Source: a virus
IMG/VR virus record: IMGVR_UViG_3300045988_166466
DNA: 36,479 bases
Reading direction: 5' to 3' (one strand)
Positions 6,303 through 36,479 of this stretch are shown piece by piece. The translations under genes and the position numbers were made by a program. How positions within the stretch are numbered: position 1 is the first letter of the stretch; every line of letters begins with the position of its first letter. The notes beneath the pieces are model-generated. The model made no database searches and was not told where the DNA came from. It saw only the letters and a program-made list of their open reading frames with translations.

Positions 6303-6445
6303 GCCTGACCAAGGAGGAGTGGAAGATGGGCCTCACCGAGGAGTCCAAGCGGGACGGGTGCCTCGTGGCCGCGTCCTTGGCGCTCATGTGCCTCGCGACG
6401 GCGGCGGTGCTCGCACTGGCGCTCATCGCGGCGCTGTCCGAGTGA
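6299..6445 (+). CDS. Small membrane protein (48 aa)
   Basis: ATGA overlap. Hydrophobic C-terminus CLATAAVLALALIAAL. Confidence 0.4.
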   Translation: MSLTKEEWKMGLTEESKRDGCLVAASLALMCLATAAVLALALIAALSE

Positions 6446-6448
6446 GGC

Positions 6449-6652
6449 ATGGACATGAAGAAGGGTGAGAGCTGGGACGGGTGCCGCTTCATCCACGTGT
6501 GCTGCGACTACGGCGTGTGCCAGGACCAGATGCTGGACGAGCTTGGCACGACATGCGACACGGTCAGGTGCGCCGAGTGGATCAGCGACCACCTCATAGA
6601 CGAGCAGGACGAAAACGACGAGCTTTGCGAGGGATGCATATGGGACGCATGA
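6449..6652 (+). CDS. Small Cys-rich acidic protein (9 Cys)
   Basis: From the ORF track. Carries HVCCDYGVCQ...CEGC. Confidence 0.5.
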   Translation: MDMKKGESWDGCRFIHVCCDYGVCQDQMLDELGTTCDTVRCAEWISDHLIDEQDENDELCEGCIWDA

Positions 6653-6822
6653 GCGCAGAGGAGTACAGGACGAGGCGCCGGGAGATCATCGAGCGCTATC
6701 GCACCGAGATAGACGAGCACGAGTCCGCCGGGTGCTACGGGGACGCCGAGAACGCGCGCAAGTGGATGCGCATGGACCTCGAGACCCTAGACCGCGACTA
6801 CAACGAGGGACGTGATGCGTAA
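6649..6822 (+). CDS. Hypothetical small protein
   Basis: ATGA overlap. Confidence 0.4.
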   Translation: MSAEEYRTRRREIIERYRTEIDEHESAGCYGDAENARKWMRMDLETLDRDYNEGRDA

Positions 6823-7058
6823 TGTCCGAGAAGCTGATAGGTCAGGCAGAGCGAGACATGCTCGGCAACGACCTTTTCTGGAGGTTCCTGAAGTACGACG
6901 AAACCATGCCCGGGCACTTCATCGACCTGCGCTGGACCGGATACAACGACCACGACTGGTGGTCCAAGTGGTCAAAGGGATGCGAGAACGCGGAGCAGGG
7001 CGGGCGCAGGTTCCGCATCGACTTCGCGAACTGCAACGTGTACGAGGTGATCGACTGA
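6822..7058 (+). CDS. Hypothetical protein
   Basis: TAATG overlap. Confidence 0.5.
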   Translation: MSEKLIGQAERDMLGNDLFWRFLKYDETMPGHFIDLRWTGYNDHDWWSKWSKGCENAEQGGRRFRIDFANCNVYEVID

Positions 7059-7210
7059 TGGATTGCGAGAAGAGCTGCGAGTGGTGCGAGCACTGCCTCT
7101 ACATCGGAGATGGCGACTTCTGGTGCGACGAGAGGCACGAGATCATCGCGAGCGAGTTCGAGATTCACGGAAGCGAGACGTGCGAGAGGTACCGGGAGGT
7201 GGACTCATGA
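7058..7210 (+). CDS. Small Cys-rich protein (7 Cys)
   Basis: Sequence begins MDCEKSCEWCEHC... Confidence 0.45.
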   Translation: MDCEKSCEWCEHCLYIGDGDFWCDERHEIIASEFEIHGSETCERYREVDS

Positions 7211-7410
7211 GCGCGGTGGAGTACACGAGGTGCGACGGGGAGAACTGTGGGCGCGTCGATCCCGACGAGCCGTATGGGATGCACGAGACCGGCTGGGCGC
7301 GCGTCACGGTCTGGGGAGTAGGTGACTACGACCTCTGCCCCGAGTGCGCGCGCAGGGCGCTCGCCGCCGTGGGGATAGACGAGACGGAGGCGACGCGACA
7401 TGACCGCTGA
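7207..7410 (+). CDS. Small Zn-ribbon protein
   Basis: CDGENCG...CPEC. Confidence 0.45.
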   Translation: MSAVEYTRCDGENCGRVDPDEPYGMHETGWARVTVWGVGDYDLCPECARRALAAVGIDETEATRHDR

Positions 7411-7591
7411 GGAGGCCCGTGGCCGCGTGACGAAGGCCCGCCGCGCCCTCGACCGCGCCATGCGGGCGCTGTCGGTTCCGGGGCCGGACTGGGGGGCCGC
7501 CGTGGACGCGCTGCTCGACGCGTCGAGAGAGGCAAACGAGCTGGCGCTCCGATGCCTGGACGAGAAGGCGAGAAGGATGATTGCCAAATGA
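7400..7591 (+). CDS. Hypothetical small helical protein
   Basis: From the ORF track. Confidence 0.4.
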   Translation: MTAEEARGRVTKARRALDRAMRALSVPGPDWGAAVDALLDASREANELALRCLDEKARRMIAK

Positions 7592-7908
7592 GCGAGGGGC
7601 TGATGCCGTGCTTCTTCTGCGAATGTGACGAGGTTCGCGTCATCGTCGTGGACGAGGTGACCGACGCAGGGGCCGAGGAGGCGACCGTTCCGCTCTACGC
7701 GGCGAGCTGCCCGTACTGCGGCGCGCGCGGCCCGATGGCGCTCTCGGAGGACGAGGCCGTGGAGGCGTGGAACCGCCGCGCGGAGCGGACGTGCCGCATG
7801 GTCGACAACGGATGCGAGCTCTGCTGCTCTGCGTGCGACGGTCGAATCGAGTACGACTATGAACCCAACTACTGCCCCAGCTGCGGCGCGAGGGTGGTGA
7901 GCAAGTGA
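7588..7908 (+). CDS. Lar-family restriction-alleviation-like protein with an extra C-terminal zinc ribbon
   Basis: N-terminal LMPCFFCE and CPYCGARGP...SEDEAVEAWNRRAE match the Lar-family pattern (LKPCPFCG...eeAieaWNrRa). Confidence 0.55.
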   Translation: MSEGLMPCFFCECDEVRVIVVDEVTDAGAEEATVPLYAASCPYCGARGPMALSEDEAVEAWNRRAERTCRMVDNGCELCCSACDGRIEYDYEPNYCPSCGARVVSK

Positions 7909-19849: not shown

Positions 19850-20281
19850 ATGAGGGGCGGTCTGCTCAGCATAGAGGCCAAGGGCCTCACCGAGACGATC
19901 AAGGCCCTCCGTGCCATCAACCGAGAGCTCCCTCGCGAGCTCAAGCGCGGCCTGAAGGAGGACGCCAAGCCCATCCTCGCCGACGCCCGCAGCAACGCCC
20001 AGTCCATCGCCTACTCGGGCGCGTACGCGTCGAGCATGGCCATGCGGGCCATGTCGAACGGCGTGCGCATCGTGAGCGACGACCCCGGCGCCGGGACCAT
20101 CGAGTTCGCGCACCGGGGCGCCTTCTACCTATCCGGGAGGCGCCGAGGCCTCCCGGTCGGCGTGCCCTCCGGCAACCCGCCCCGCGCCCTCGTGAGGGCC
20201 GTCCTCGACAACGAGGAGGACGTGAAGAGGGCCGTCGAGAGCCGCATCGAGCAGACCATAAGGAAGTACCTCAATGGGTAA
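19850..20281 (+). CDS. Hypothetical tail-module protein
   Basis: RBS GGGAGG. Confidence 0.5.
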   Translation: MRGGLLSIEAKGLTETIKALRAINRELPRELKRGLKEDAKPILADARSNAQSIAYSGAYASSMAMRAMSNGVRIVSDDPGAGTIEFAHRGAFYLSGRRRGLPVGVPSGNPPRALVRAVLDNEEDVKRAVESRIEQTIRKYLNG

Positions 20282-23200
20282 GGCAAGCATCTCCATCGCC
20301 ATATCCGGCTCCTACAACGGGTCGGCGGTAGAGCGGGCCGAGAAGTCGCTCGACCGGCTCGCGGTGAAGACCGCCGCCGCCGAGGGCTCGATGTCCAAGA
20401 GCTGGGTCGAGGCGGGCTCCAAGGCCGCAGAGCTGGGCGGCAAGATCTACAACCTCGGCGACTCGATGGAGCGGGCGGGCGACACGCTCACTCGCGGCCT
20501 GACGCTCCCGCTCGCGGCTGCGGGCGCAGGGGCCATCGCCGCCGCCACCGACTTCGACGCCGCAGGCTCCAAGATAGACGCCGCGTGCGGCGAGGCCACA
20601 AAGAGCGCCGAGGTGCTGAAGGAGGTCGGGAGCGGCCTCTACAAGGACGGGTGGGGCGAGTCGATGGACGCCATTGCGTCCTCGGCGATACGCGCGCGCG
20701 AGATCCTCGGCGACCTCTCGGAGACCGACATGAGCTACGCCATCGAGGGCGCGATGACCCTCGAGCAGGCGTATGGGAGCGACTTCGCCGAGAGCCTCAG
20801 GGGCGTGAACGTCCTCATGGACAAGTTCGGCCTCAGCGCGACCGAGGCGACCGACCTCATGGTCGCTGGAACCCAGCGTGGGCTCGACTACACCAAGGAG
20901 CTCGGCGACAACCTCTCGGAGTACTCCGGCCGCTGGGCCGACGCGGGCATGTCCGCGTCCCAGTACTTCTCGCTCCTCGAGGCGGGCGCGCAGGGCGGCG
21001 CGTACCAGCTCGACAAGGTCGGTGACTTCCTGAACGAGTTCCTGACCTCGCTCTCGGACGGGCGCATGGAGGAGGGCATCGCCCAGTTCTCGCAGGGCAC
21101 CCAGGCGACCTTCGAGTCCTTCAAGGAGGGCGGCGCCTCCGCTCAGGACGTGCTCAACGCCGTCGTGGGCGAGCTCGCCACCATGCCGGACGAGTACTCC
21201 AAGGCGCAGATAGCCTCCGAGCTGTGGTCCTCGCTCGGCGAGGACAACGCCATGTCCATGATCACGGCGCTCGCGGGCGTGGACGACACCTTCACGGACG
21301 TCGGCGGCGCGGCTCAGGACGCCGGTGACAAGATCAGCGACAACCTCGCGAACAAGGCGACCTCGGCGCTCAGGACTGCTCAGGAGGCGGCGCTGCCGTT
21401 CGCGTCCGTCGCTGTGGACGTCCTCGGCGACGTGGCCGACACCGCGAAGGGCGCCGCCGAGGGCTTCTCCGAGCTTGACGAGGGCACCCAGAACATGGTC
21501 GTGTCCGCAGGGCTGCTGGCTGCCGCCGCCGGTCCCGTCCTCTCCGTGGGCGGCCGCATCGTCAAGGGCGCTGGGTCGGTCGTGACGGCCTACGGCAGGG
21601 TCAAGCAGGAGATAGCGGTCTACGCGGACGCGCTCACCACCACCAACGCCGCCTCGCTCAAGGCGTATCAGGGCAACGAGAAGCTGGCGAAGGCCCTTGA
21701 GCGCAATCCCGCAGCCAAGGCGGCTGGCGGCGTGCAGCAGTACATCGACGCCGTCACCGACGCCAACAAGAAGACATCGGACTACAGCACGTCGGTCAAG
21801 AGGCTCGAGCGCGAGCAGCAGAAGGGCTCCAAGGCAAACACCGAGCTCGTAGAGAACCTCAAGAAGGAGGTCGCCGAGCGCAAGAGCGTGGCGGACGCGG
21901 CCAAGGGCACCGTCGAGGGCTACAAGGCATCGGCGGCGGCCGCGCAGACGAGCACCGCAGCCGTCACCGCCCAGAGCGTCGCCATGAAGGCCGCAGCGGT
22001 CGCCGGGACCGCGCTCAAGGCTGTCCTCGCGACCGCCATACCCGTGCTCGCCATCACCGCCATAACCTCGCTGGTCTCCTACTTCCAGCAGGCCGACGAG
22101 AAGGCGCGGACGTTCACCGCCGCGACCGAGGGCCTCACCTCGGCGACCGAGAAGGGCGTGAGCGCGTCCAACGCGGGGGCGGAGGCGCTTGAGGGCTACG
22201 GCCAGTCGGCTGGCGTCGCCAAGGTGGACGTCGATGAGATGCTCGAGTCCCAAGCACAGCTCGCCGAGACCATCAGCGACACCAACGTCTCCGCGTCAGC
22301 CCAGATGGCCCAGCTTCAGCAGGCGTACTCGACCATCCAGCAGTACGCAAACCAGTCCGACCTGTCCACCGACGCGCAGGCGCGCCTCAAGACCGCCGTC
22401 GAGACCGTGAACGACCTGTGCGGCACGCAGATAGAGGTGACGGACGCGGCCAACGGCGCCCTGTCCGACGAGAACGGCGCGATTCAGGACGTGACCGCGT
22501 CGCTCGGCGCGTACATCGACCAGAAGATGCAGCAGATCCAGATCGACGCGCAGCAGCAGAACCTCTCCGCGCTCTATCAGCAGCAGGCCGAGGACATCAC
22601 CGCGCTCACTCAGGCGCAGCAGGCGTACAACGACAAGCAGCAGGAGCGCGACGAGTACATCGAGAACTACATAAGCCGATACGGCCAGTACTCGCAGAAC
22701 GCCGAGGAGGCCGCAGAGCTCGCGTGGCAGAACGCCCTCGCCAACTCGGACGAGGCGAAGGCCGTGGAGGAGGCGCAGGCGGCGCTCGACGCGTGCAACA
22801 CCTCCATCGACAACGTCTCTTCCTCCATGAGCGCTCAGGCGGCGATAGCGGAGGGCAGCTCCACGAGCATGCGGAACATGGTCCTCGCGAGCTCGACGGT
22901 ATCCACGGCCATGAACGCCGTCGGCGGGGACATCAACGACTTCGCCACGGACCTGAGCAACGCGGGCGTGTCCGTGTCAACCTTCCGGAGCCTCAGCGAC
23001 GAGCAGCTCGCCCAGCTCGTGGCGTCTTGGGACGGCACCTCAGAGAGCATCGTCACGACGCTCGACGGCATGGGCGTGGAGATGGGGGACGCGGGGCTCA
23101 ACGCTGCCACCGCCCTCGCGAACGGCATGGCGAGCGGGCAGGTGGACGTGGACTCCGCCACGAGCATCCTCAAGGCCGCCGCAACGGGCGACTGGTCGAG

Positions 23201-24359
23201 CGTCTCGTCCCAAATGAGCAGCGCGGGCATCAGCCTCCCGCAGAGCGTGGCGGACGGCATCACATCCAACAGCTTCACCGCATCCGGCGCCACCAACACC
23301 ATGCTGTCCATGATCGCCCTACAGCTTACGGGCGGGGACGTCCCGGCCGCCGCGCAGCTGCTCGGCCACGACATCGACCAGGGCCTCGCCGACGGCATCG
23401 CCAACGGCACGCTCTCAGACGAGCAGGCGGCGCTCCTCGGCGAGGACGTCATCAACCGGGCCAAGGACACGCTTGAGTCGCACTCGACCTCTCAGGCCTT
23501 CTACCGCATAGGCTCGGACGTGGACGCGGGCCTGTCCCTCGGCATCAGCGGCAACACCTCCGGCCCGCTCGGGGCGATAGGGCAGCTCGGACAGTCCCTC
23601 ATCGATCGCATCAGCGGGCTCCCGGGAGAGGCGCAGGCGACCGGAAGCGGGGCGTCCGGCGGCCTGTCCGCAGGCCTCGCGGCGGGCGTCGGCTCCGTCG
23701 CCGCAAGCGCGCTGAGCCTCGCGAGCTCCGCGTCGTCTGGCGTCGCGGGGACTCCGTCCGACCTTTCCGGCAAGGGCCGCAGCGCATCCAGCAACTTCGC
23801 CAGCGGCATCGGCTCCGGCGTCGGCGCAACCCGCACAAGCGCCGACAGGCTCTCGAGCGCGGCCTCGAGCATGGGCGGCGGGGACTCGTGGACGTGGGGC
23901 TCGCACCTCGCGAGCAACTTCGCTAACGGCATCAGCGCCGGAATCAGCTGGGTCTCGAGCGCGGCCGCGAGCATCGCCCAGGCGGCGAAGAACGCCATCG
24001 GCTTCTCCGTCCCGAAGGAGGGGCCGTGGTCCGGAAGGGAGAAGGGCGGCGAGACCTCGGGCCTCCACCTCGCGCAGAACTTCGCGCGCGGCATGCTATC
24101 CGGGGCGCCCGCCGTCTCGTCGGCGGCGCGGGCACTCATGGGCAGCGCCGCGCTCACCGGCTCCGCGACATACGGCACCGCCGCGTCTCAGGCCCGGGCC
24201 ACCGGGCAATCTCGCGATGACGTTATCGTCCTGCTGACGGAGCTCATCGGCGAGGTGTCGGCCCTCCGGGCGGAGCTAGGCCCCACCATCGCCGACTACT
24301 CGCCCTCGTTCCCGACCGAGCGGCAGGCCAAGAGGAAGGTGCAGGAGTGGACTCGCTGA
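20274..24359 (+). CDS. Tape measure protein (1361 aa)
   Basis: Length, Ala/Gly/Ser-rich repetitive helical composition, and position. Confidence 0.9.
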   Translation: MGKASISIAISGSYNGSAVERAEKSLDRLAVKTAAAEGSMSKSWVEAGSKAAELGGKIYNLGDSMERAGDTLTRGLTLPLAAAGAGAIAAATDFDAAGSKIDAACGEATKSAEVLKEVGSGLYKDGWGESMDAIASSAIRAREILGDLSETDMSYAIEGAMTLEQAYGSDFAESLRGVNVLMDKFGLSATEATDLMVAGTQRGLDYTKELGDNLSEYSGRWADAGMSASQYFSLLEAGAQGGAYQLDKVGDFLNEFLTSLSDGRMEEGIAQFSQGTQATFESFKEGGASAQDVLNAVVGELATMPDEYSKAQIASELWSSLGEDNAMSMITALAGVDDTFTDVGGAAQDAGDKISDNLANKATSALRTAQEAALPFASVAVDVLGDVADTAKGAAEGFSELDEGTQNMVVSAGLLAAAAGPVLSVGGRIVKGAGSVVTAYGRVKQEIAVYADALTTTNAASLKAYQGNEKLAKALERNPAAKAAGGVQQYIDAVTDANKKTSDYSTSVKRLEREQQKGSKANTELVENLKKEVAERKSVADAAKGTVEGYKASAAAAQTSTAAVTAQSVAMKAAAVAGTALKAVLATAIPVLAITAITSLVSYFQQADEKARTFTAATEGLTSATEKGVSASNAGAEALEGYGQSAGVAKVDVDEMLESQAQLAETISDTNVSASAQMAQLQQAYSTIQQYANQSDLSTDAQARLKTAVETVNDLCGTQIEVTDAANGALSDENGAIQDVTASLGAYIDQKMQQIQIDAQQQNLSALYQQQAEDITALTQAQQAYNDKQQERDEYIENYISRYGQYSQNAEEAAELAWQNALANSDEAKAVEEAQAALDACNTSIDNVSSSMSAQAAIAEGSSTSMRNMVLASSTVSTAMNAVGGDINDFATDLSNAGVSVSTFRSLSDEQLAQLVASWDGTSESIVTTLDGMGVEMGDAGLNAATALANGMASGQVDVDSATSILKAAATGDWSSVSSQMSSAGISLPQSVADGITSNSFTASGATNTMLSMIALQLTGGDVPAAAQLLGHDIDQGLADGIANGTLSDEQAALLGEDVINRAKDTLESHSTSQAFYRIGSDVDAGLSLGISGNTSGPLGAIGQLGQSLIDRISGLPGEAQATGSGASGGLSAGLAAGVGSVAASALSLASSASSGVAGTPSDLSGKGRSASSNFASGIGSGVGATRTSADRLSSAASSMGGGDSWTWGSHLASNFANGISAGISWVSSAAASIAQAAKNAIGFSVPKEGPWSGREKGGETSGLHLAQNFARGMLSGAPAVSSAARALMGSAALTGSATYGTAASQARATGQSRDDVIVLLTELIGEVSALRAELGPTIADYSPSFPTERQAKRKVQEWTR

Positions 24360-25168
24360 CATACACCGGGTCGGGCGGCGCCCTGTCGTTCGACCTCGTG
24401 AAGCTCATACGCCTCGGAGAGGGAGACCCGCTGAGGTCGCGCGCGTGGTCGCGCACGCTCGGCTACCGCTCCCTCTCCAACCTCTCGCGGCCCGCCAAGG
24501 AGGTCACGATGCAGGTAAGCGCCACGCCCGAGGCTGCCGATGAGGCCCGCAGAGTGTTCGAGGCCGACATGGCCGCGAACTCCCCGGGCGTCATCGACCT
24601 CAACGGCTGGACGCAGCGCGCTCTCGTGCCTGAGTCCTCCAACGAGGTGCTCAGGCCGTCGCGCGTGCAGCTCACCCTCACCGTGGCCCTGCTCGACGGG
24701 GTGTGGCGCAGGGAGCACCTGACCCACTTCATGCCGCTCGACCTCCCGCTCGACACGGGAGAGGGCAAGGGCTACCCGCACGGCTACCCCTACGCATACG
24801 GCGTTGTCTCCACGCCCAAGAGCCTCACGCAGCCCGGGTACCTCCCGGCGCCCTGCAAGCTCGTCATCTTCGGGCCGGTCTCCTCGCCGTCCATCACGAT
24901 CGGCGGCAACGTGTACGCCTACGAGGGGGACGTGCCGTCGGGCGCCTACCTCACGATAGACGGCGTGGCCAAGACCGCCGTGCTCACATCGCAGCATGGC
25001 TCGTCCACCAACGCCATGCCCGGTCTCGTGCTCGGCACGGGCGAGGGCTCCGGCGAGTACGCCTTCGAGCCGGTGAAGCCGGGAATCCAGCCACTGAGCT
25101 GGAACGGCGCGTTCGGCTTCGACGCGTACCTGTACGAGGAGGAGGGAGAGGTGCCGTGCTGCTCGTGA
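24347..25168 (+). CDS. Distal tail protein (Dit-like)
   Basis: Position directly after the tape measure gene. GTG start. Confidence 0.55.
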   Translation: MDSLTYTGSGGALSFDLVKLIRLGEGDPLRSRAWSRTLGYRSLSNLSRPAKEVTMQVSATPEAADEARRVFEADMAANSPGVIDLNGWTQRALVPESSNEVLRPSRVQLTLTVALLDGVWRREHLTHFMPLDLPLDTGEGKGYPHGYPYAYGVVSTPKSLTQPGYLPAPCKLVIFGPVSSPSITIGGNVYAYEGDVPSGAYLTIDGVAKTAVLTSQHGSSTNAMPGLVLGTGEGSGEYAFEPVKPGIQPLSWNGAFGFDAYLYEEEGEVPCCS

Positions 25169-26121
25169 TCGCATCCACGGACATGACCAAGCGCCTCGCC
25201 ACCGAGGACTTCGAGCTGGACCTCGAGATGGGGCTCGGCACGGACAACGACTTCGAGCTGACCACGCCCGAGAGGGTCTACGGTATGGAGGCCGTGTTCT
25301 TCCCCGGCACTGAGTACGGCGGCGTCGTTGACGAGGACGAGCCGGTCATGGGCGACGGCGGCGAGAGCGTCTCCTACCACGGCGTCACGTGGACCGGCGT
25401 CCTCGACCAGAACGTCACGCGGCCGCCGAGCGGCCAGTCGCACCTCGCCGTCTCCGGCACCGCCGAGGAGTGCATCTCCGCGCTCCTCTCGTCGTGCGGG
25501 GTTGGCGCACCGTTCGCGGTCCCCGAGGGGGAGACGGGCTCGGTGTCCTACACCGTCCCGCGCTTCGCAACGCTCTACGAGGCCATCGTCGGCGCGCTCT
25601 CCTCGGCGGGCCTAGCCCTCGGGATGGAGTGCGCGGACGGCGAGGTGAGGCTCTACGCCAAGGCCCCGGCGACCATAGACGAGACGCAGGGCGTCGGCTT
25701 CGACGCCAAGCGCGGGTACCGGCCCGTCAACCACCTCGTGGTGCTGGGCAAGGGCGAGATGCAGGAGCGCGAGGTCATCGACCTGTACGCGGACGATGAG
25801 GGCAACGTCTCGACCACCCAGAGCATCTTCGGCCTCGCGCACCGCTCCGAGGTCTACGAGCTGTCAAGCAGCGAGGGCGACGAGCTCAGGTCTGGCGGCG
25901 AGAAGAAGCTCCGGGAGTATCAGGAACAGAGGGACTCCGTCAAGATCACCGTCCCGGAGGGCGTGGACGTCTCCATCGGCGACACGCTCTCGGCGACCTC
26001 TCCGAAGTACGGCATCCGTGCGAGCGCGAGGGTCACGGGCGTCGTGGTCGAGGCTTCGGCCGGTACGGTGTCGGTCACGCCGAGGACCGACGGCGACATA
26101 GAAGTGAAGGACTACGAATAG
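25156..26121 (+). CDS. Tail tip/baseplate (Tal-like) protein
   Basis: Position. GTG after GGAGGGAG. Confidence 0.5.
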   Translation: MLLVIASTDMTKRLATEDFELDLEMGLGTDNDFELTTPERVYGMEAVFFPGTEYGGVVDEDEPVMGDGGESVSYHGVTWTGVLDQNVTRPPSGQSHLAVSGTAEECISALLSSCGVGAPFAVPEGETGSVSYTVPRFATLYEAIVGALSSAGLALGMECADGEVRLYAKAPATIDETQGVGFDAKRGYRPVNHLVVLGKGEMQEREVIDLYADDEGNVSTTQSIFGLAHRSEVYELSSSEGDELRSGGEKKLREYQEQRDSVKITVPEGVDVSIGDTLSATSPKYGIRASARVTGVVVEASAGTVSVTPRTDGDIEVKDYE

Positions 26122-26129
26122 GAGTCGAA

Positions 26130-26357
26130 ATGGGAAAGATCGAGGGAATCACGGAGTGGGAGTGCGACCGCTGCGGCGAGAAGCACTTCGCGCCCAAGGG
26201 CGACAGCTACGTGAAGGAGTGGGGCCAGCCCAAGCGCATCAACTCGTCCCTTGACGAGGCGACGTGCACGCTCTGCCCGACGTGCCTGAGCGAGTACAAG
26301 ATGCTCGTGGCCGCGCACGACAAGGACTTCGCCAGCTTTCTGAAGGGAGAGAAGTAG
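26130..26357 (+). CDS. Small Zn-ribbon protein (CxxC...CxxC)
   Basis: RBS TAGGAG. Lies directly upstream of the receptor-binding protein gene. Confidence 0.45.
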   Translation: MGKIEGITEWECDRCGEKHFAPKGDSYVKEWGQPKRINSSLDEATCTLCPTCLSEYKMLVAAHDKDFASFLKGEK

Positions 26358-27152
26358 ATGGAGATCATCACCGCAGGGGACGGCACCGCCCACGTCAGCT
26401 CGGCGGACGACGGCACCATCTACGCAGGAATCGCGGGCAACGAGTGCTACGTGACCGGCGTCGGCGACAGGCTCTCGTGCACCATGCAGGGCGCCAACAC
26501 GGCTCTGTTGGGCACCGGCGTCGGCATCATGTACGGCCGCGCCTTCCGCGTGGCCATGCCCGAGGAGGTGACGATACAGTCCGGCACCCAGTCACAGCGC
26601 CGAAACGACGTGATCTGCGCCCACTTCACCACATCCTCCGAGGGCCACGAGTCCGGCGAGCTCGTCGTGCTCAAGGGCACGCCGACCTCCGGGCAGGAGG
26701 CGGAAGACCCCGAGATCCCGTCGGGCGACATCCTCGAGGGCGCGACCGAGGCGTACATGCCGCTGTGGCGCATCCCGCTCGACGGCATCAACGTGGGAGA
26801 GCCGGAGGCGATGTTCGACGTCCTCATGTCCATGAGCGAGCTTCAGGGTGAGATCGCTGAGGTCCGGGATTCCGTATCCCAGATGCGACGTGTGTTCTCG
26901 GGCTCGAAGGTCATCACGCTCAACAACGCAGGATACGGGACGTTCCTCACCGACTCTGAGTACCGCTCCGTGGTCGGAAGGAGCTTCGACCAGGCGTCCG
27001 ACTGCGTGTATGCGATGAACGGCGACGTCGACGCTGTGAACGCGCCGGTGAAGGGCACGAGCTACGTCCCGTCATCAAAGACCATAATCTTCTCCCTCGA
27101 CAGCGCGCGCTCGGGAAAGATCAGGATTAACTACCTAATCGTCGCACGATAG
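26358..27152 (+). CDS. Receptor-binding protein / tail fibre. Constant N-terminus (to about 26869) plus the currently expressed C-terminal cassette C0 (26870..27152)
   Basis: RBS GAAGGGAGAG and position after Dit/Tal. The in-frame crossover core TTCCGTATCCCA at 26870-26881 encodes ..D-SVSQ.. Confidence 0.65.
   Translation: MEIITAGDGTAHVSSADDGTIYAGIAGNECYVTGVGDRLSCTMQGANTALLGTGVGIMYGRAFRVAMPEEVTIQSGTQSQRRNDVICAHFTTSSEGHESGELVVLKGTPTSGQEAEDPEIPSGDILEGATEAYMPLWRIPLDGINVGEPEAMFDVLMSMSELQGEIAEVRDSVSQMRRVFSGSKVITLNNAGYGTFLTDSEYRSVVGRSFDQASDCVYAMNGDVDAVNAPVKGTSYVPSSKTIIFSLDSARSGKIRINYLIVAR
26870..26881 (+). repeat. Site R0: shufflon crossover core TTCCGTATCCCA inside the receptor-binding protein gene (in frame)
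   Basis: Exact 12-mer shared with R1, R2, R4, R5, R6 and R7. Confidence 0.85.
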
Positions 27153-27166
27153 CTTTCCGTATCCCA
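27150..27166 (+). repeat. Site R1: TAG-CTTTCCGTATCCCA
   Basis: The stop codon of the receptor-binding protein gene forms the first 3 nt. Confidence 0.9.
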
Positions 27167-27437
27167 ACAACCCAGAATCATCATCGGCACCGGCATATGG
27201 ACGGCCTCAGCAGGAAGCGACAGGCTCACGCTCTGGACGAGAGAGCAGTTCACGGATAAGTTCGGGGCGCCGTTCAACAACACATACGACTGCCTCGCCG
27301 CGATGAACGGAGACGCCGCCGCGCAGGGCAACGCGAAGGTGCTCGGATGCTGGTACGAATCAGGCACGATAGGATGCCACCTGAGTGGGCATGCTACCGG
27401 CGTCATCCGAATAAACTACGCCATATTCCTTCATTGA
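27153..27437 (+). CDS. Silent alternative C-terminal cassette C1 (promoterless, in frame after the site)
   Basis: Opens with LSVSQ and ends ..GVIRINYAIFLH*, paralogous to the tail of C0 (..IRINYLIVAR*). Confidence 0.7.
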   Translation, partial: LSVSQQPRIIIGTGIWTASAGSDRLTLWTREQFTDKFGAPFNNTYDCLAAMNGDAAAQGNAKVLGCWYESGTIGCHLSGHATGVIRINYAIFLH

Positions 27438-27454
27438 CGGCTTTCCGTATCCCA
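27435..27454 (+). repeat. Site R2: TGA-CGG-CTTTCCGTATCCCA
   Basis: Read directly. Confidence 0.9.
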
Positions 27455-27749
27455 TGAGATTGCACAAGGCTGCGTCTGTATGGCGACGGGGGCCATAGCC
27501 ACCGTGTGCGTCGACTTCGTTGCGTCAAACCCTGCAGGGTCGTATACCGCGCTCGGCACGCTGCCTGATGGCGTGGTCCCCGCAGAGACGGCTCTTGGCT
27601 CGTACAACGCCGCGCTGGCCTTCAGGGGCTCAGCATCAGGCGGCCAGTCGGGCATGATCACCGTTAACACAGAGACCCGCGGCGTGACGATATGGACCTC
27701 AACAGCCGATAAGTACTATACGGGCAGCGTGACATTCCCCGTGCGATAG
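27438..27749 (+). CDS. Silent alternative C-terminal cassette C2
   Basis: In frame after R2 and ends at TAG. Includes ORF 27480..27749. Its tail ..TIWTSTADKYYTGSVTFPVR is paralogous to C6. Confidence 0.7.
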   Translation, partial: RLSVSHEIAQGCVCMATGAIATVCVDFVASNPAGSYTALGTLPDGVVPAETALGSYNAALAFRGSASGGQSGMITVNTETRGVTIWTSTADKYYTGSVTFPVR

Positions 27750-27763
27750 CATTCCGTATCCCG
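27747..27763 (+). repeat. Site R3 (variant): TAG-CATTCCGTATCCCG
   Basis: 11 of 12 core positions are identical. Confidence 0.8.
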
Positions 27764-28070
27764 GATTGTCACCGGGACGGTGACCAAGAGCATAAAGCAG
27801 CCGAGCGGCACCGACTGGGCGTACATTACGTCCTGCCTGTCCTACGACGAGGTCGAGGACATACTCGGGCGCCCCTTTGACGTCACGAGGGACCAGTTCT
27901 ACGCGACGAACGTCAGATGGGAAGCGTGTCAGGTGATCGTGGTGCCGTTCGTCCAGAAGATGCCTCGGGGAGGAGTGCTCAACGCCGCCGCCCTCACGCC
28001 GACAGGGCAGGGCGGCGGCGGGCAGACCAAGAGCCTCACAATCGGTTGGACCATCATCAAGGGCTATTAG
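27750..28070 (+). CDS. Silent alternative C-terminal cassette C3
   Basis: Includes ORF 27780..28070. Confidence 0.7.
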   Translation, partial: HSVSRIVTGTVTKSIKQPSGTDWAYITSCLSYDEVEDILGRPFDVTRDQFYATNVRWEACQVIVVPFVQKMPRGGVLNAAALTPTGQGGGGQTKSLTIGWTIIKGY

Positions 28071-28084
28071 CTTTCCGTATCCCA
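28068..28084 (+). repeat. Site R4: TAG-CTTTCCGTATCCCA
   Basis: Read directly. Confidence 0.9.
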
Positions 28085-28466
28085 AGTTCAGGCAGACCTG
28101 CCCTCTGGGGCCAAGCGTATCACCGTGAGCGGGGTCACGGCGTCGTATAACGGCGGCACCGTCCAGTGTGACGCATGGAGGCTCAGCGGCCTCGGCATCG
28201 CCATCGTGCAGGTGCCCGTTAGCAAAGCTGGGAGGTCCCTCAGATTTTCCAGCCAGTCGGGCGGCATATGGCTTTCTGAGACCGTGACCGTCAATCTGCC
28301 GAGCGGGCTCGTCGCGAGCAACGAGGGCGTATGCTTCGGCGGCGTGCGGAACGGTCACGCATGGCTTGTCGCCTTCACCTTCAACGGCAGCTCCATCAGC
28401 TTTGCCGTCGCAACGACGGCTAAGGACCAGCAGCCGTATCAGCTGACGGTCGCCTTCAGCTGCTGA
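28071..28466 (+). CDS. Silent alternative C-terminal cassette C4
   Basis: Includes ORF 28125..28466. Confidence 0.7.
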   Translation, partial: LSVSQVQADLPSGAKRITVSGVTASYNGGTVQCDAWRLSGLGIAIVQVPVSKAGRSLRFSSQSGGIWLSETVTVNLPSGLVASNEGVCFGGVRNGHAWLVAFTFNGSSISFAVATTAKDQQPYQLTVAFSC

Positions 28467-28483
28467 CGGCTTTCCGTATCCCA
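28464..28483 (+). repeat. Site R5: TGA-CGG-CTTTCCGTATCCCA
   Basis: Read directly. Confidence 0.9.
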
Positions 28484-28814
28484 TGTTCTTTGGGAGGGCA
28501 GCGCATCCTCGCTCGATGTGGAGCTTCCGGGCCTGTCGCGGGCCAAGGTCCTGCTCTTCGATTTCTCCGTCAAGGGCAAGCACGTCGGCACGGGGGTCTG
28601 CGCCCCGCGCCAGGGGCAGAACGCCGCCATGGCGTGGGGAATCACCGAGAGCGAGAGGCTGACCATGGTGCGCTTCCGGCCCACGATCGACGGGGACCGC
28701 CTGAGCTTCTCCTACGGGTACTGCTCCTACTCGGAGTTCGCATACAAGCTGGGTGAGCCGCTGGTGTTCGTTGACGGCGTGGGTGCAAGCCTGACGAGGA
28801 TCGTCGCTCTGTAG
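28467..28814 (+). CDS. Silent alternative C-terminal cassette C5
   Basis: Includes ORF 28518..28814. Confidence 0.7.
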   Translation, partial: RLSVSHVLWEGSASSLDVELPGLSRAKVLLFDFSVKGKHVGTGVCAPRQGQNAAMAWGITESERLTMVRFRPTIDGDRLSFSYGYCSYSEFAYKLGEPLVFVDGVGASLTRIVAL

Positions 28815-28828
28815 CTTTCCGTATCCCA
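28812..28828 (+). repeat. Site R6: TAG-CTTTCCGTATCCCA
   Basis: Read directly. Confidence 0.9.
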
Positions 28829-29141
28829 AGCGATAGACGATTGGATCGCATGCATAAGGGTCGGCAAAATCGGAATCATCATCGCCGATAATATCGCGTC
28901 GGACAAGGCGAGCGGCTATACGACCTACACCATGCCGGACGGGATGGTGCCGGATGACTCTCTGCTGTCGGATTCGAGCAATACCGGGTTCTCCGCGCCG
29001 CTCTCCTATCGGGGGAAACCGTCTGAGGGTCAATCGGGCTTCATGTCCCTCACGAAGAAGAGCGGAGCATGGTATCTGGATGTCTGGACGTCCACGACGG
29101 CCAAATACTATCTTGGCGAGCTTGTGTTCCCGATCCGCTAG
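28815..29141 (+). CDS. Silent alternative C-terminal cassette C6
   Basis: Includes ORF 28932..29141. Its stop TAG lies inside the palindrome GCTAGC, shared with the stop of the inverted cassette C7. Confidence 0.7.
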   Translation, partial: LSVSQAIDDWIACIRVGKIGIIIADNIASDKASGYTTYTMPDGMVPDDSLLSDSSNTGFSAPLSYRGKPSEGQSGFMSLTKKSGAWYLDVWTSTTAKYYLGELVFPIR

Positions 29142-29509
29142 CCTACCGGGTAGCTCAGGGAGCCTGAGAAGACGCCCCATGTAGACGAGTCTCCCGGCGC
29201 GTAGAGCGAACCGATCTTGACGGCGCCCGCCGCATCGACCTCCATATAGAGCCACGAGCCGTCGTTCTTGGTGCCGAGCGGCTGCCTGTACGCCCTCGAC
29301 GGCCTGTGGCCCGCCTTGATGTGGCCCGCGACGGAGGGCGTCGCGAAGATGGTGGCAGTGCCGGACTGATTCCACCGCTCGACGGTCACGGTGACGATGC
29401 CCGCAATCTCATAGGCCGTCACGTCGATGTCATCCCACGTCTGGTCCTGCCTCACGCTCGTCATCTGTCCCAGGGCGGCGATGTCATCGGTGTTCTGGGA
29501 TACGGAAAG
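29138..29509 (-). CDS. Silent alternative C-terminal cassette C7 in inverted orientation
   Basis: On the minus strand, the site at 29512..29496 is followed in frame by LSVSQNTDD...SLSYPVG*. Includes ORF 29138..29464. Confidence 0.7.
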   Translation of the reverse strand, partial: LSVSQNTDDIAALGQMTSVRQDQTWDDIDVTAYEIAGIVTVTVERWNQSGTATIFATPSVAGHIKAGHRPSRAYRQPLGTKNDGSWLYMEVDAAGAVKIGSLYAPGDSSTWGVFSGSLSYPVG

Positions 29510-29512
29510 CTA
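29496..29512 (-). repeat. Site R7, inverted copy: TAGCTTTCCGTATCCCA on the minus strand. Its TAG is the stop codon of the tyrosine recombinase gene
   Basis: Exact reverse complement of the R1/R4/R6 sequence. Confidence 0.9.
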
Positions 29513-30385
29513 TGCAGCCGCAAGCATCGCCTCCTCATAGGCATCGGCGGCTCGACCCACGACCGTCCGGAAGCTCATCAAATAGTGCTGCACGCAGGTG
29601 TCCACGCCGGTGTGCCCGAGTGCAACCGCGACGTCCTCTATCGCCGCTCCCGCCTCAAGGGCTATCGTGGCCCATGAGTGCCTGAGGCAGGTCATGGGCA
29701 CCCACGGGAGGGCGAAGCGGCGGCAGAACCGCTGGAAGCGCCCCGCTATCTGATGGGGGGCGAGCGCGCCGCGCAGCCTCCCCGAGCGGAGGGCGCCGCG
29801 CAGCTGCCGGAGCCTTGAGAGCGCCCACCTCGGCACGCGCAGCCATCTGTCCGATAGCTTCGTCTTGGTGTCGTATTCCACCAGCTCCCCGCCTACCCAG
29901 TGCGCGCCCCGGCGCACGTGCACCCAGCCCCGGCGCCAGTCGAAGTCCGACCAGTCAAGCCCGCATGCCTCCGAGCGCCTGAGCCCTAGCGCGGCCTCGC
30001 ACAGAACGACGGCCTCCCACTCCTGCCCGCGTATGCCCCTGAGCGTCTCGCGCTCCTGCTCGGCGGTGAGCACCGGTCGGCGCCTCCTCGGCGTCTCGGG
30101 CAGCTCGATTCCCTGCGTGATGTCCCATATGCGCAGATGGGCCTTGCGGATGACCCACCTGTAGATCTGCCTGAAGGTCTTGAAGGCCTTCTCGGCGGCA
30201 CCGGCCATCTCGAACCCGTCCACCCACGCCTGAAGCTCGTCGTGCGTTATCCCTTCGACCTCGCGGCCCTCCCACGCGGGCATGAGATGTCTGTTTATAG
30301 CCGAGGCGTAGCCCTCCAACGTGTTGCCCCTGAGCCTCTTCGATTTGTCTTCCCAGTACTTCTCAACGGCGGTCTCGAACAGCAT
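29510..30385 (-). CDS. Tyrosine site-specific recombinase, proposed shufflon recombinase (Rci-like role)
   Basis: Motifs GLRRSEACGL (box I Arg), LRHSWAT (HxxR), LGH, and VQHY (catalytic Tyr). RBS GAAGGGA. TTG 30400 is an alternative start. Confidence 0.85.
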   Translation of the reverse strand: MLFETAVEKYWEDKSKRLRGNTLEGYASAINRHLMPAWEGREVEGITHDELQAWVDGFEMAGAAEKAFKTFRQIYRWVIRKAHLRIWDITQGIELPETPRRRRPVLTAEQERETLRGIRGQEWEAVVLCEAALGLRRSEACGLDWSDFDWRRGWVHVRRGAHWVGGELVEYDTKTKLSDRWLRVPRWALSRLRQLRGALRSGRLRGALAPHQIAGRFQRFCRRFALPWVPMTCLRHSWATIALEAGAAIEDVAVALGHTGVDTCVQHYLMSFRTVVGRAADAYEEAMLAAA

Positions 30386-30404
30386 CTCTCGTCCCTTCAA
30401 ACCG

Positions 30405-30458
30405 AAAAATCCCAGACGCGCGTTCTCGCGACGTCCTCTCTCATCGTCTGGGATTTTT
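30405..30458. promoter_or_regulatory. Perfect 14-bp inverted repeat AAAAATCCCAGACG/CGTCTGGGATTTTT with a 25-nt loop, between the divergent recombinase and lysis-cassette genes
   Basis: Read directly. Coordinates are ±1. Confidence 0.6.
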
Positions 30459-31292: not shown

Positions 31293-31303
31293 CGCTGCTC
31301 CTC

Positions 31304-31912
31304 GTGACCATCTTCCTCCTCGGCGCGCTCGCGGTCGCCACGCAGCCGCAGCCCGCCGTGGAGGAGCCGGAGGAGATGCCGGTCGTGTACGACACGCCCG
31401 CCCCGGACGTTCCGCCGCTCTACTACCAGGCGGACGAGCGGTGGGGCGGGCTGCCATACGCCGACGCGGACCTCGCCACATCAGGGTGCGGCCTCACGTG
31501 CGCGGCAATGGCTTGGGAGCACCTGTCCGGCGAGACGTGCACACCGGCGATGCTCCTCAACCTCGTCGGAAACTCATGCGTTCAGGACGGACAGAACTAC
31601 ATGCCGGGGTTCTGCGAGTGGATGGTGCAGCAGGACCGGTCGCTCGACTACACCGTCATGTACGAGGACCGGGAGCGCGCCATCGAGGAGTGCGCGCGGG
31701 GTCGCATGGTGTTCGGCTCCATGACCGGGAGGCTCACCGAGGATGGGGCGTCCTACGGGGGGCACATCGTGCTTCTCTGCGGCGTGGACGGGGACGAGAT
31801 CGTCATCCACGACCCGCGCAGCGTGACGGCAGTGATCATCGACAGAGCCCGGTTCCAAGAGGTGGACTGGGCCTACTTCATCTCTATAGGGAGGAGCGAG
31901 CAATGGCTCTAA
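31304..31912 (+). CDS. C39-like papain-fold peptidase domain protein with an N-terminal signal-anchor
   Basis: YYQADERWGGLPYADADLATSGCGLTCAAMAW, giving a Cys-His catalytic context. N-terminal TM segment TIFLLGALAVA. The start (GTG 31304) is uncertain. The 5' part of the track ORF overlaps the holin gene and is non-coding-like. Confidence 0.55.
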   Translation: MTIFLLGALAVATQPQPAVEEPEEMPVVYDTPAPDVPPLYYQADERWGGLPYADADLATSGCGLTCAAMAWEHLSGETCTPAMLLNLVGNSCVQDGQNYMPGFCEWMVQQDRSLDYTVMYEDRERAIEECARGRMVFGSMTGRLTEDGASYGGHIVLLCGVDGDEIVIHDPRSVTAVIIDRARFQEVDWAYFISIGRSEQWL

Positions 31913-33006: not shown

Positions 33007-33210
33007 ATGCAGACGATCAACGCCAAGTACACCCCGACCAAGCAGAAGGGCGCTCAGGAGGTGAGCCTCTACATCGAGGGGCTCCCCGAGAGCGAGGTCA
33101 CGCAGGCCGACTACGTGGCCGACCCCGCCGGTGACACGCCGACCAAGGCCGAGTTCATCTCCCTGCGCGACGCCATGGTCACCGCTGGCGTCATGAAGCC
33201 CGCGAGCTAG
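33007..33210 (+). CDS. Hypothetical small protein
   Basis: RBS AGGAGGA. Confidence 0.4.
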   Translation: MQTINAKYTPTKQKGAQEVSLYIEGLPESEVTQADYVADPAGDTPTKAEFISLRDAMVTAGVMKPAS

Positions 33211-34694
33211 GCCGCGCGGCTGAAGCGCAGGTAGACGGCCCCGTTCAGGACGGCCATCATCGTTCGAGTATTTTTGCAAACGGGGCACCATTCGAATGAA
33301 GTACGAACCCGCGAGAGCCTCAACCTCGCGGGTTCGTTCTTTTCCGCGTCGAAGTTCATGGTCACGACGACCTCCTCATCGGAGACCATCACCTGATACA
33401 CGAAGCCCTGCAGGAGCAGATCGTCGGTGAGCGTGGCGCCGAACTGCAGGAACCGGGTGAAGTTCTCCACGCTGAACACCTTGCGGTCGTACATGGCGAG
33501 CTCGTGCTCGGCCCGCTCCTTCTGGGCCTCGAGCTCCTCCGCCCTCTCCTTGGTGCCCGGTACCACGATGCCCTGCTCCACGGCCTTCAGGATGTTGGAC
33601 AGGCCGGTCTCGGCCGCTCTCAGCGCCGCTGCGGCCTGCTTCCGGTGCTCGGCCACCTCCTTGGGCTCCCCGGCGCCGACGCACATCTCGGCTATCCTAC
33701 GAGCCTCATCGGGCTGGGAGAGCAGCTCGCGCAGGGCGTCAATGATGGAACCCTCAAGCCAGTCGCGGCGGACGGGCCTGACCTCCTTGCAGCTGCCGCA
33801 GGAGTAGTACTCGTACTTCCGATTGGAGGAGCCGCGCCCGGACACCCCGCGCATGTTGCGGCCGCACGCCGAGCAGATCACGCGACCGGAAAGGGCGAAC
33901 TCGCCCCACTCCTCGTTGCGGCGCTGCTTCTTGCTCTTGACCATCTGAGCCCTCCTGAACGTCTCGTCGCTCACTATCCTCGGCATGCCGTCCTTCTTGG
34001 TGACGCCGCCCCACGAGTAGATGCCCCGGTACTTCTCGTTGTGCAGCATGTGGTTCACGAACGTGTCCTTTATCGGGTTGCCAGCCCTCGACACCACGCC
34101 CCTCCGGCGAAGGTCCATCGCTATCGAGTTGACGGTCTCCCCGTGGACGCGGCGGCGGAACACCTCGCGGACTATCTCCGCCTCGTCGGGGTCTATCTCG
34201 TAGCGCCCGTCATCGCCGGTCCTGTAGCCGAAGCACCGCACGCCGTTCGTCCTGCACTTCATGGCGTTGGTGGTCATGTCCCGCTTGACGCGCACGGAGG
34301 TCTTGCGGGACTCGCACGCCGCTAGGCCCTCGAGAAGCTTCTCGTAGATGATGCCCTCGGGCGAGTCTGGTATGGCCTCGAGGGCGGAGACCAGCCTCAC
34401 GCCCCTCTTCTGAAGCTCGCGCTTGTATATGGGCGCGTCGAAGGGGTCTCGGCTGAACCTGTCCATCATGTAGACGAGCACGATGTCCGATTCACCGGCG
34501 TTGGCTATCATCTGCTGGAACTGCGGGCGCTCGTCGGTCGTACCCGAGATTGCATAGTCGCAGTACTCCGCGACGATGGCGTAGCCCTCGCGGGCGCACC
34601 AGTCGCGGCACACCCTGAGCTGGCCCTCGATAGACTCCTCGCGCTGCTTGGAGCACGAGAACCGCGCGTAGAGAACGGCGGTCTTCTGTGACAT
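33207..34694 (-). CDS. Large serine recombinase (phage integrase)
   Basis: Catalytic-Ser context AVLYARFSCSKQREE, plus a recombinase domain and a Zn-ribbon/coiled-coil C-terminus. 495 aa. Confidence 0.9.
   Translation of the reverse strand: MSQKTAVLYARFSCSKQREESIEGQLRVCRDWCAREGYAIVAEYCDYAISGTTDERPQFQQMIANAGESDIVLVYMMDRFSRDPFDAPIYKRELQKRGVRLVSALEAIPDSPEGIIYEKLLEGLAACESRKTSVRVKRDMTTNAMKCRTNGVRCFGYRTGDDGRYEIDPDEAEIVREVFRRRVHGETVNSIAMDLRRRGVVSRAGNPIKDTFVNHMLHNEKYRGIYSWGGVTKKDGMPRIVSDETFRRAQMVKSKKQRRNEEWGEFALSGRVICSACGRNMRGVSGRGSSNRKYEYYSCGSCKEVRPVRRDWLEGSIIDALRELLSQPDEARRIAEMCVGAGEPKEVAEHRKQAAAALRAAETGLSNILKAVEQGIVVPGTKERAEELEAQKERAEHELAMYDRKVFSVENFTRFLQFGATLTDDLLLQGFVYQVMVSDEEVVVTMNFDAEKNEPARLRLSRVRTSFEWCPVCKNTRTMMAVLNGAVYLRFSRAA
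33304..33344 (+). terminator. Rho-independent terminator at the end of the lysis operon, lying inside the 3' coding region of the convergent integrase gene
   Basis: GAACCCGCGAG-(9-nt loop)-CTCGCGGGTTC followed by GTTCTTTT. Confidence 0.6.
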
Positions 34695-36141: not shown

Positions 36142-36479
36142 AGTGGACTACCCGAGAAATCAAGTACCTCGAAGAGCACGCCGACGAAGGCGCCGAGGCG
36201 GTTGCTGCATCCCTTGGCCGCACCGTCCAATCCGTCAAGGCTCAGGCCAAGCGCTACGGACTCTCACTCCGCAGGGCGTGGCAGTGCCCGAAGTGCGGGA
36301 TGCGCGTGCACACGCCGCTATCGCCCAAGACGGGCTGGTGCGTCGCTTGCACCCGCGAGCTTCGCAACGAGCGGATCGCCGAAGAGGTACGGGAGCTTCA
36401 GGAGGAGGTGAGACGGGAGGAGAGGGTCAACCGCGAGCGACAGAGGCTCTACAGCGCGAAGCACAGGGCCAGAAAAAAG
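36138..36479 (+). CDS. 5' part of a hypothetical Zn-ribbon/DNA-binding protein gene that wraps across the contig junction (continues at 1..110)
   Basis: GTG start. WQCPKCGMRVHTPLSPKTGWCVAC. The frame runs off the window end and continues at the window start. Confidence 0.5.
   Translation, partial: MKWTTREIKYLEEHADEGAEAVAASLGRTVQSVKAQAKRYGLSLRRAWQCPKCGMRVHTPLSPKTGWCVACTRELRNERIAEEVRELQEEVRREERVNRERQRLYSAKHRARKK
36385..36479. repeat. Terminal direct repeat, identical to 1..95
   Basis: Exact identity. Confidence 0.95.

Follow-up and report, generated by a model that had tools for sequence, protein, structure and literature searches.

Shufflons built around the phage-encoded recombinase Rin were described in 2018 for the Bifidobacterium breve and Bifidobacterium longum prophages Bb423phi1, Bl157phi1 and Bl30698phi1 (Mavrich et al., Sci Rep, PMC6109161). 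They combine a constant part of the receptor-binding protein (Rc, 168 amino acids) with variable parts (Rv, 95-100 amino acids) and an 11-bp asymmetric site, rix, of sequence TTCCCTAACCC (PMC6109161). Rin, an armless tyrosine invertase separate from the integrase, was called the first phage-encoded invertase of the tyrosine family, and the published model involves inversion only (PMC6109161). In Bb423phi1, rix inversions were seen in prophage and virion reads, the variants being present in reads only (PMC6109161). A Rin shufflon with the 8-bp repeat ttccgtat was later reported for Eggerthella lenta clade 1 prophages (Buttimer et al. 2022, Microorganisms, PMC8778435). Here we analyzed the virus record IMGVR_UViG_3300045988_166466, a stretch of 36,479 nucleotides from a gut phage, referred to in the following as the window. 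With a probability of roughly 87%, positions 26358-30385 of the window hold a Rin-type shufflon, a phage-encoded multiple-inversion system that changes the head of the receptor-binding protein. Judged by its sequence, the locus is a member of the published family and not a new kind of system. A shufflon with a dedicated tyrosine recombinase, as put forward in a preliminary description of this DNA, is supported by isomers with breakpoints in the site core, by the fold of the receptor-binding protein and by the recombinase domains, and the accompanying view that no such system had been described before is refuted by the reports of 2018 (PMC6109161) and 2022 (PMC8778435).

In tblastn, residues 1-175 of the window Rc shared 30-47% identity (E 1e-18 to 1e-40) with the Rc encoded by IMG/VR loci that have TTCCCTAACCC, and 40% with the Rc of Bifidobacterium phage PMBT6; the window Rin was 38-41% identical over its full length to the recombinases beside TTCCCTAACCC arrays. 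At the level of the site, ttccgtat of E. lenta equals the first 8 bases of the window core, and TTCCCTAACCC matches the 11-bp window core TTCCGTATCCC at 9 of 11 positions. The scan of IMG/VR for the published site plus flank returned many multi-site arrays. PMBT6 and Siphoviridae sp. ctl617 share the synteny of the window, which comprises a zinc-ribbon gene, Rc, the cassettes and a reverse-oriented gene annotated "integrase"; the site of both is TTCCGTAACCC, flanked by TGGGA within the gene and by TAGCT at the cassettes. Altogether, the features of the Rin family found in the window are a homologous Rc, an armless tyrosine recombinase, one rix per cassette, dissimilar start-less heads and inversion end-points within rix.

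Like the window locus, the Bifidobacterium shufflons have an Rc of about 168-170 amino acids, start-less Rv of about 95-130 amino acids (6-37% mutual identity), an in-frame asymmetric site and a distal Rin. The window has eight cassettes, whereas there are five Rv in Bb423phi1 and 3-6 sites per Bifidobacterium-type IMG/VR locus. Its site differs from the Bifidobacterium rix at two positions, and the Rin-proximal site is flanked by TAGCT instead of the GGGA of most Bifidobacterium-type loci examined. The lysogeny enzyme is a large serine recombinase in the window but a tyrosine integrase in the Bifidobacterium prophages, the host is probably one of the Coriobacteriia rather than Bifidobacterium, and inversion is documented by reads there and by genome comparison here. 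With the E. lenta clade 1 prophages the window shares the Rc/Rv/Rin layout and, probably, a high-GC Coriobacteriia host; the best candidates for that group among the IMG/VR loci (L017, L035 and L041) have the same 11-bp core, with an Rc 43% and a Rin 44% identical to those of the window. Clade 1, in contrast, carries a tyrosine integrase where the window has a serine integrase, and H-type lectin heads, reported in E. lenta prophages, are not among the eight window cassettes.

Eight sites, seven direct and one inverted, were found where the preliminary description had placed them. On the plus strand, exact copies of the 12-bp sequence TTCCGTATCCCA lie at 26870, 27155, 27443, 28073, 28472 and 28817, and the one-base variant TTCCGTATCCCG (ending in CCCG) at 27752; the minus strand has one exact copy, at 29496-29507; the 11-bp core is perfect in all eight. 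When up to 2 mismatches were allowed, 9 matches were obtained against 1.24 expected, a count that none of 100 dinucleotide-preserving shuffles reached, which rules out chance repeats; the ninth match, at 3768 and with 2 mismatches, is unrelated to the array. The in-gene site R0 (26866..26881, plus strand) consists of GGGA, TTCCGTA and TCCCA and encodes D-S-V-S-Q at the junction of neck and head. Its GGGA left flank, which gives a 4+7+4 dyad, is unique among the eight window sites and recurs at the in-gene sites of PMBT6, ctl617 and the Bifidobacterium-type loci. The downstream direct sites, all on the plus strand, are R1 (27155..27166, preceded by TAGCT), R2 (27443..27454, preceded by TGACGGCT), R3 (27752..27763, the variant, with left flank TAGCA), R4 (28073..28084), R5 (28472..28483) and R6 (28817..28828). 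The sole inverted site, R7 (29496..29507, minus strand), abuts the recombinase stop codon, and an inverted site lies next to the recombinase in every related locus examined.

All downstream sites are preceded by TAG-CT, TAG-CA or TGA-CGG-CT, and thus by the stop codon that had been noted before. The distances from core to core (285, 288, 309, 321, 399 and 345) are likewise multiples of 3 as reported, but the conclusion drawn from this, that such spacing makes the fusions in frame, does not follow. Fusions are in frame because the phase of the core is fixed relative to each cassette; the spacing is a by-product, since every cassette's stop sits at a fixed phase before the next core. Across lineages the site varies in two places, position 5 of the putative overlap (G/C) and the initial base of the right arm (T/A). 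Site variants also occur mixed within single arrays: L116 has four copies of TTCCCTAACCC and one of TTCCGTAACCC (at 5881), L031 is mixed as well, and L114 contains one TTCCCTATCCC (at 14046). A cassette whose overlap differs from that of the in-gene site should not recombine with it, and the mixed arrays therefore suggest, by their sequence, recent import of a cassette from another lineage.

The expressed gene (26358..27152, plus strand) contains the site in frame and encodes 264 amino acids. Residues 1-170 (26358..26869, plus strand) form Rc, the constant N-terminal part with shoulder and neck helix, which matches PHROG 9994/13141 N-terminally. A search of 5.8 billion proteins gave 890 homologues of the window protein. 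In the AlphaFold2 model, built with 40 homologues (mean pLDDT 87), the beta-rich N-terminal domain extends to about residue 156; residues 159-176 form a helix, and residues 179-262 fold into a compact C-terminal domain. The top Foldseek matches of the model were structures of the receptor-binding protein of lactococcal phage p2 (2wzp, 2x53, 1zru, 2bsd; E 2e-5 to 7e-5), and a PDB profile search with Rc gave one weak match, to a chain named receptor-binding protein (E 1.8e-4). The p2 protein (PDB 2bsd, 1zru, 2wzp) also has 264 amino acids and shoulder, neck and head domains, although identity is just 11-12%, the TM-score of the monomer model is about 0.39 and p2 is not phase-variable. The model thus supports assignment of the product, encoded downstream of the tape measure, Dit and minor tail genes, as a siphovirus baseplate receptor-binding protein of the p2/TP901-1/1358 type, with shoulder, neck and head. 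As the site encodes the end of the neck, it is the head that gets exchanged, and different heads would presumably bind different receptors.

With the Ser codon taken as the first, each of the eight cassettes has an open frame of 93-130 codons that runs from the core to a stop 2 or 5 nt before the next core, in accordance with the start-less frames described earlier. Rv1-Rv7 have no start codon, and their openings, encoded by the site, are S-V-S-Q/H/R; the LSVSQ or LSVSH opening that had been given for all of them holds except for the fourth cassette, which opens with HSVSR. The scan for promoters and terminators found no promoter-like site within the array, in line with the cassettes having been called promoterless. 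The expressed head Rv0 (26871..27152, plus strand) has 93 amino acids followed by a stop. The silent heads on the plus strand are Rv1 (27156..27437, 93 amino acids, 36-40% identical to Rv0), Rv2 (27444..27749, 101 amino acids, 37% identical to Rv6), Rv3 (27753..28070, 105 amino acids), Rv4 (28074..28466, 130 amino acids), Rv5 (28473..28814, 113 amino acids) and Rv6 (28818..29141, 107 amino acids). Rv6 converges on the last cassette, the silent Rv7 (29138..29506, minus strand, 122 amino acids; reading frame from the core 29506..29141), which is inverted as described. The comparison of heads and the structure prediction that had been recommended gave a p2-like expressed protein and pairwise identities of about 14-37% between the eight heads, with recognizable kinship only in the pairs Rv0/Rv1 and Rv2/Rv6.

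The stop codons of Rv6 and Rv7 overlap in GCTAGC (29137-29142), and the same is seen in L063 (about 6879-6882) and L071 (about 7470-7473). This hexamer at the convergent point looks like two left flanks (TAGC and GCTA) joined back to back without a core. H-type lectin heads (PF09458) were observed in sister phages with an Rc at least 94% identical (L073, 8205-8711; P0021), and Pfam detects none among the eight heads of the window.

Switching is supported by natural isomers, seen in consensus assemblies of related phages. Over residues 1-175 many homologues matched the window protein at 93-99% identity, and right after DSVS they continued with unrelated C-termini. Three such C-termini are heads that are silent in the window: P0012, from L063 (NCBI GCA_048488335.1), is Rc plus Rv7 (99% identical to the window cassette), P0002 from L068 is Rc plus Rv1 (90%), and P0014 is Rc plus Rv6 (95%). 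P0127 has the composition of P0002, and P0140 and P0141 that of P0014, these three without an identity score; L069 and L070 also join Rc to Rv6. The most complete comparison is with L063, whose flanks on both sides of the array are 97-99.6% identical to the window. In a notation in which round brackets mark inverted cassettes, its order is Rc[7](6)(5)(3)(1)(4)(0)Rin, versus Rc[0][1][2][3][4][5][6](7)Rin in the window. Six of the other seven window cassettes are thus reversed and reordered, and Rv2 is absent. Additionally, the outer flanks are swapped reciprocally: in the window the Rc flank adjoins Rv0 and the Rin flank Rv7, in L063 the Rc flank adjoins Rv7 and the Rin flank Rv0, where Rv0 is inverted, silent and next to the recombinase.

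All breakpoints between the window and L063 fall within the 11-bp core. Base 12, the G of Rv3, moves with the cassette in L063, L068 and L071, while bases -1 and -2 stay with the upstream segment, so that the polymorphic bases around the core confine the exchange to the 11 bp TTCCGTATCCC. In L069, too, the same cassettes are otherwise ordered or fused to Rc with breakpoints within the core, and the relatives L068, L071 and L073 have 5-9 cassettes in further orders and orientations. Where Rv2 is lacking in L063 (7859), the cores of two direct sites form the exact junction, with the left flank of R2 joined to the right flank of R3 (window 27443-27763); by its sequence this junction is the footprint of a deletion or insertion event involving two direct sites.

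The window and the nine other arrays that were whole from Rc to Rin (two near-duplicate contig pairs included; three site variants covered) share one layout: the direct sites all come first, the inverted sites all follow, and the array converges at one point only. A formal check showed that no inversion between oppositely oriented sites breaks this pattern, and that inversion can never part the two cassettes that meet at the convergent point. In agreement with this rule, Rv6 and Rv7 are adjacent in the window, L063 and L071. As only R7 is inverted in the window isomer, a single inversion suffices to reach Rv7 and two are needed for any other head, which bears out the earlier statement that all eight heads are accessible by successive inversions.

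In the mechanism that we propose, Rin would recombine R0 with an oppositely oriented rix site, and inversion of the intervening DNA would put a different head in frame behind Rc. Strand exchange would take place within TTCCGTATCCC, with the 7-bp overlap TTCCGTA being most plausible. The site would accordingly comprise a left arm, the overlap TTCCGTA and a right arm TCCC(A), of which the right arm is conserved; the left arm would be GGGA, mirroring the right arm, in R0 only, and the cassette sites would have the left flank (TA)GCT. This asymmetry of the left arm is a likely basis of orientation control and of the survival of long runs of direct sites. We infer Rin to be the catalyst of inversion, as we do the exact positions of cleavage. 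In the Rci/sfx system of plasmid R64, site asymmetry controls orientation and direct-site runs survive. The R64 shufflon is also alike in having one tyrosine recombinase, multiple inversions, asymmetric sites and a constant N-terminus with alternative adhesin C-termini, and in both systems the long-lived arrays imply a bias to inversion only. R64 (Rci, 19-bp sfx sites, pilV) differs in that its product is the type IV pilus adhesin of a conjugative plasmid and in the sequence of the site; the array topology of one direct run, one inverted run and a single convergent point is also unlike that of R64. No Rci-specific match for Rin was found among the models of NCBIfam or Pfam.

The recombinase gene rin (29510..30385, minus strand; alternative TTG start at 30400) encodes 291 amino acids with the Pfam domains PF00589 (Phage_integrase) and PF14659 (Phage_int_SAM_3), which confirms the tyrosine recombinase named in the preliminary description. 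Its TAG stop is the stop codon in front of the inverted site R7. According to Pfam, Rin has the core-binding and catalytic domains only and no arm-binding domain. The closest solved structures were XerC-like and XerD (sub-threshold), and NCBIfam gave Xer and integron-integrase matches, all sub-threshold. When 12 Rin proteins were aligned, the catalytic Arg, Lys, Arg-His, His and Tyr were kept. A role of Rin as the lysogeny integrase was rejected: the window encodes, as had been stated, a large serine recombinase, which is complete, and Rin abuts the array in all lineages.

A hairpin with a 14-bp stem, AAAAATCCCAGACG...CGTCTGGGATTTTT, lies at 30405..30458 (-24.5 kcal/mol, z = -5.6), with some 20-25 nt between it and the start of rin further downstream. 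The hairpin resembles a bidirectional terminator; the promoter and terminator scan missed it owing to its large loop. The distance to rin leaves no room for a promoter in between, and Rin expression is probably low. ATCCCAGA is common to the arms of the hairpin and to the right halves of R0 and R7. An equivalent hairpin was found in the same place in most Rin lineages examined (L063, L071, L073, L048, L067, L031 and about 25 Bifidobacterium-type loci). Its consensus AAAA[A/T]CCCA[C/G]A...T[G/C]TGGG[A/T]TTTT resembles the right arm of rix and is kept across lineages whose Rin are just 38-44% identical; covariation between right arm and hairpin is imperfect, with ctl617 and L031 as exceptions. 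Rin may bind this inverted repeat, or the repeat may act as an attenuator, and in either way it may set how often the system switches. The 2018 paper on the Rin shufflon makes no mention of it (PMC6109161).

Several observations weigh against a Rin shufflon that switches by inversion in this phage. The step from the window to L063 takes at least 5 inversions after Rv2 has been removed; together with the loss or gain of Rv2, this means that simple inversion is not the whole story, and that other events or many inversions occurred in the lineage. An unconstrained recombinase would delete the DNA between the seven direct sites. At R-3 of the LRH motif, where tyrosine recombinases canonically have the first His of their catalytic set, the window Rin has Thr and all other aligned members have Arg, Gln or Thr, including ones beside the published Bifidobacterium site. 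A Pfam search of all eight heads gave no meaningful match. The exact window Rin was present on five contigs of about 36.4 kb, and the two examined were 100% identical to the window over 5.9-9.9 kb and showed the same isomer. Likewise, the exact Rc variant (Leu51) was fused only to Rv0 among the proteins found. Switching may thus be rare, or the present isomer may be strongly favoured. As consensus assemblies hide minority forms, a single isomer neither proves nor excludes switching in the strain.

Among the alternatives, the one that survives best retains inversion and adds turnover of the kind known from integrons, in which cassettes are also excised, inserted or exchanged between direct sites, by Rin or by recombination with a co-resident phage. 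We regard such an addition as possible but doubtful. It would explain the gain or loss of Rv2 exactly at two direct cores, and the relocation of Rv4 in the same orientation, which takes one excision and reinsertion instead of at least 5 inversions. It would also account for the shared pool of heads: behind an Rc at least 90% identical we counted at least 32 head clusters (70% identity), in about 18 sequence-related groups, distributed over arrays of 5-9 cassettes. The mixing of rix variants in L116, L031 and L114 points in the same direction. The persistence of long direct-site runs, seven sites in the window, nevertheless requires that deletion be rare; neither a circular cassette nor an empty site was directly observed, homologous recombination in flanking homology between related phages could swap blocks as well, and the published model is one of inversion only (PMC6109161). 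Still a little more tentative is an extension of the inversion-only model that comprises both cassette exchange at rix and a role of the leader repeat of rin as a Rin-binding or attenuator element.

That the array is frozen or nearly inactive, i.e. a product of genuine Rin activity in a strain that effectively keeps the single head Rv0, is in our estimate unlikely. The two compared contigs with identical Rin show the isomer of the window, one of the eight sites is inverted so that seven inversions are possible, a strong terminator-like hairpin occupies the rin leader, and degenerate relatives exist, such as L075 with its truncated rin. On the other side, the rin gene is intact and encodes every catalytic residue that the family conserves, the eight cores are perfect over 11 bp and the eight cassettes open, several rearrangements are found among strains that diverge by 1-3%, and consensus assemblies would hide minority isomers; in Bb423phi1 the variants were seen in reads only (PMC6109161).

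Very improbable is that the repeats serve as substrates of general homologous recombination, by RecA or a phage recombinase, with Rin having another role such as integration or dimer resolution. In sequence, Rin matches Xer-type recombinases best, yet for homologous recombination an identity of 11-17 bp is very short, in every lineage (38-100% identity) the gene of the recombinase directly borders the terminal inverted site, the phage has its own serine integrase and the breakpoints are confined to the core. Least credible of all, and rejected, is that the repeats are transcription, translation or packaging signals between independent small genes: gene callers do report frames of 69-113 amino acids from internal starts in the cassettes, but each cassette frame is already open at the core, other genomes have these cassettes fused to Rc, no promoter-like site was found in the array, and the expressed gene contains the core in frame.

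The genomic setting of the Rin shufflon is that of a complete phage. Positions 1-95 of the window are identical to 36385-36479, and this exact terminal overlap of 95 bp indicates that the genome is complete, about 36,384 bp long and assembled as a circle; the G+C content is 65%, and identical sequence is present in the public assemblies ENA ERZ1742747 and ERZ27229477. The phage is also contained in runs behind Logan contigs, such as SRR14141747 and ERR13332239. Upstream of the receptor-binding protein gene lie the genes for the tape measure (20274-24359), a Dit-like protein (24347-25168) and a minor tail protein (25165-26121). These are followed by the gene for a zinc-ribbon protein of 75 amino acids (26130..26357, plus strand; CxxC...CxxC, matching phrog_28750), whose stop codon directly abuts the ATG of the receptor-binding protein gene. 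PMBT6 (29% identity, E 1e-11) and ctl617 have the zinc-ribbon gene in the corresponding place, and its product appears to be part of the Rc module. Past the array, the order is recombinase, r1t-type holin, GH25-LysM endolysin and large serine recombinase. The last (495 amino acids, 33207..34694, minus strand, 3 kb from Rin) is integrase-like, with Resolvase, Recombinase and zinc-ribbon domains, and is the sole Resolvase-domain protein in the window. In related loci, a gene of about 200 amino acids with a weak Peptidase_C39_2 match was noted between holin and endolysin; its window counterpart is at about 31300-31912.

The best match among species-representative genomes was an uncultured Atopobiaceae metagenome-assembled genome (locus L075, CAUWCN010000004.1) with an Rc 82% identical to that of the window, the sole locus returned by a single-protein scan of genome contigs. 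This locus (6001-7727) is decayed, with three sites and a recombinase match that covers residues 1-102 only. The phage host is therefore probably, on this sequence match, one of the Coriobacteriia; the placing is loose, as the single-protein scan gave one locus, in an Atopobiaceae genome with a degenerate array.

Inversion also yields alternative C-termini of a host-recognition protein in the systems Gin of Mu, Cin of P1, Pin of e14 and Min of p15B, the last of which likewise has several crossover sites and many isomers. These enzymes are serine recombinases acting on the tail fibres of enterobacterial myoviruses, in contrast to Rin, a tyrosine recombinase associated with a p2-like baseplate receptor-binding protein; the tyrosine-recombinase domains of the enzyme beside the window array exclude it from the serine invertase class. 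A further phage-encoded, multi-cassette shufflon, flanked by a recombinase and with all configurations seen in reads, was described for the tail fibre of BV01-like phages of Phocaeicola vulgatus (2026 preprint, PMC13596623). Compared by description, it resembles the window locus in that it overlaps a tail-fibre gene at the distal end, and differs by its three cassettes and six isoforms, the unrelated 10-bp motif TGGGAGAACT and the Bacteroidota host.

The value of the window locus is confirmatory and comparative, as Rin shufflons have so far rested on two genomic papers. With eight heads it is among the largest intact Rin shufflons, and it extends the family to a phage with a serine integrase and to a host that is probably one of the Coriobacteriia. 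A few minor aspects may be new: the orientation pattern that inversion leaves unchanged, the linked convergent pair and the gain or loss of cassettes at direct sites, and also the large shared head pool, the conserved hairpin in the rin leader and the conserved zinc-ribbon neighbour. Together with its sister genomes, the window provides natural before-and-after isomers that limit strand exchange to 11 bp. They show one nearly invariant shoulder and neck paired in nature with dozens of heads at a fixed D-S-V-S-Q junction, which is directly useful for engineering chimeras of receptor-binding proteins and for host prediction in phages of gut actinobacteria.

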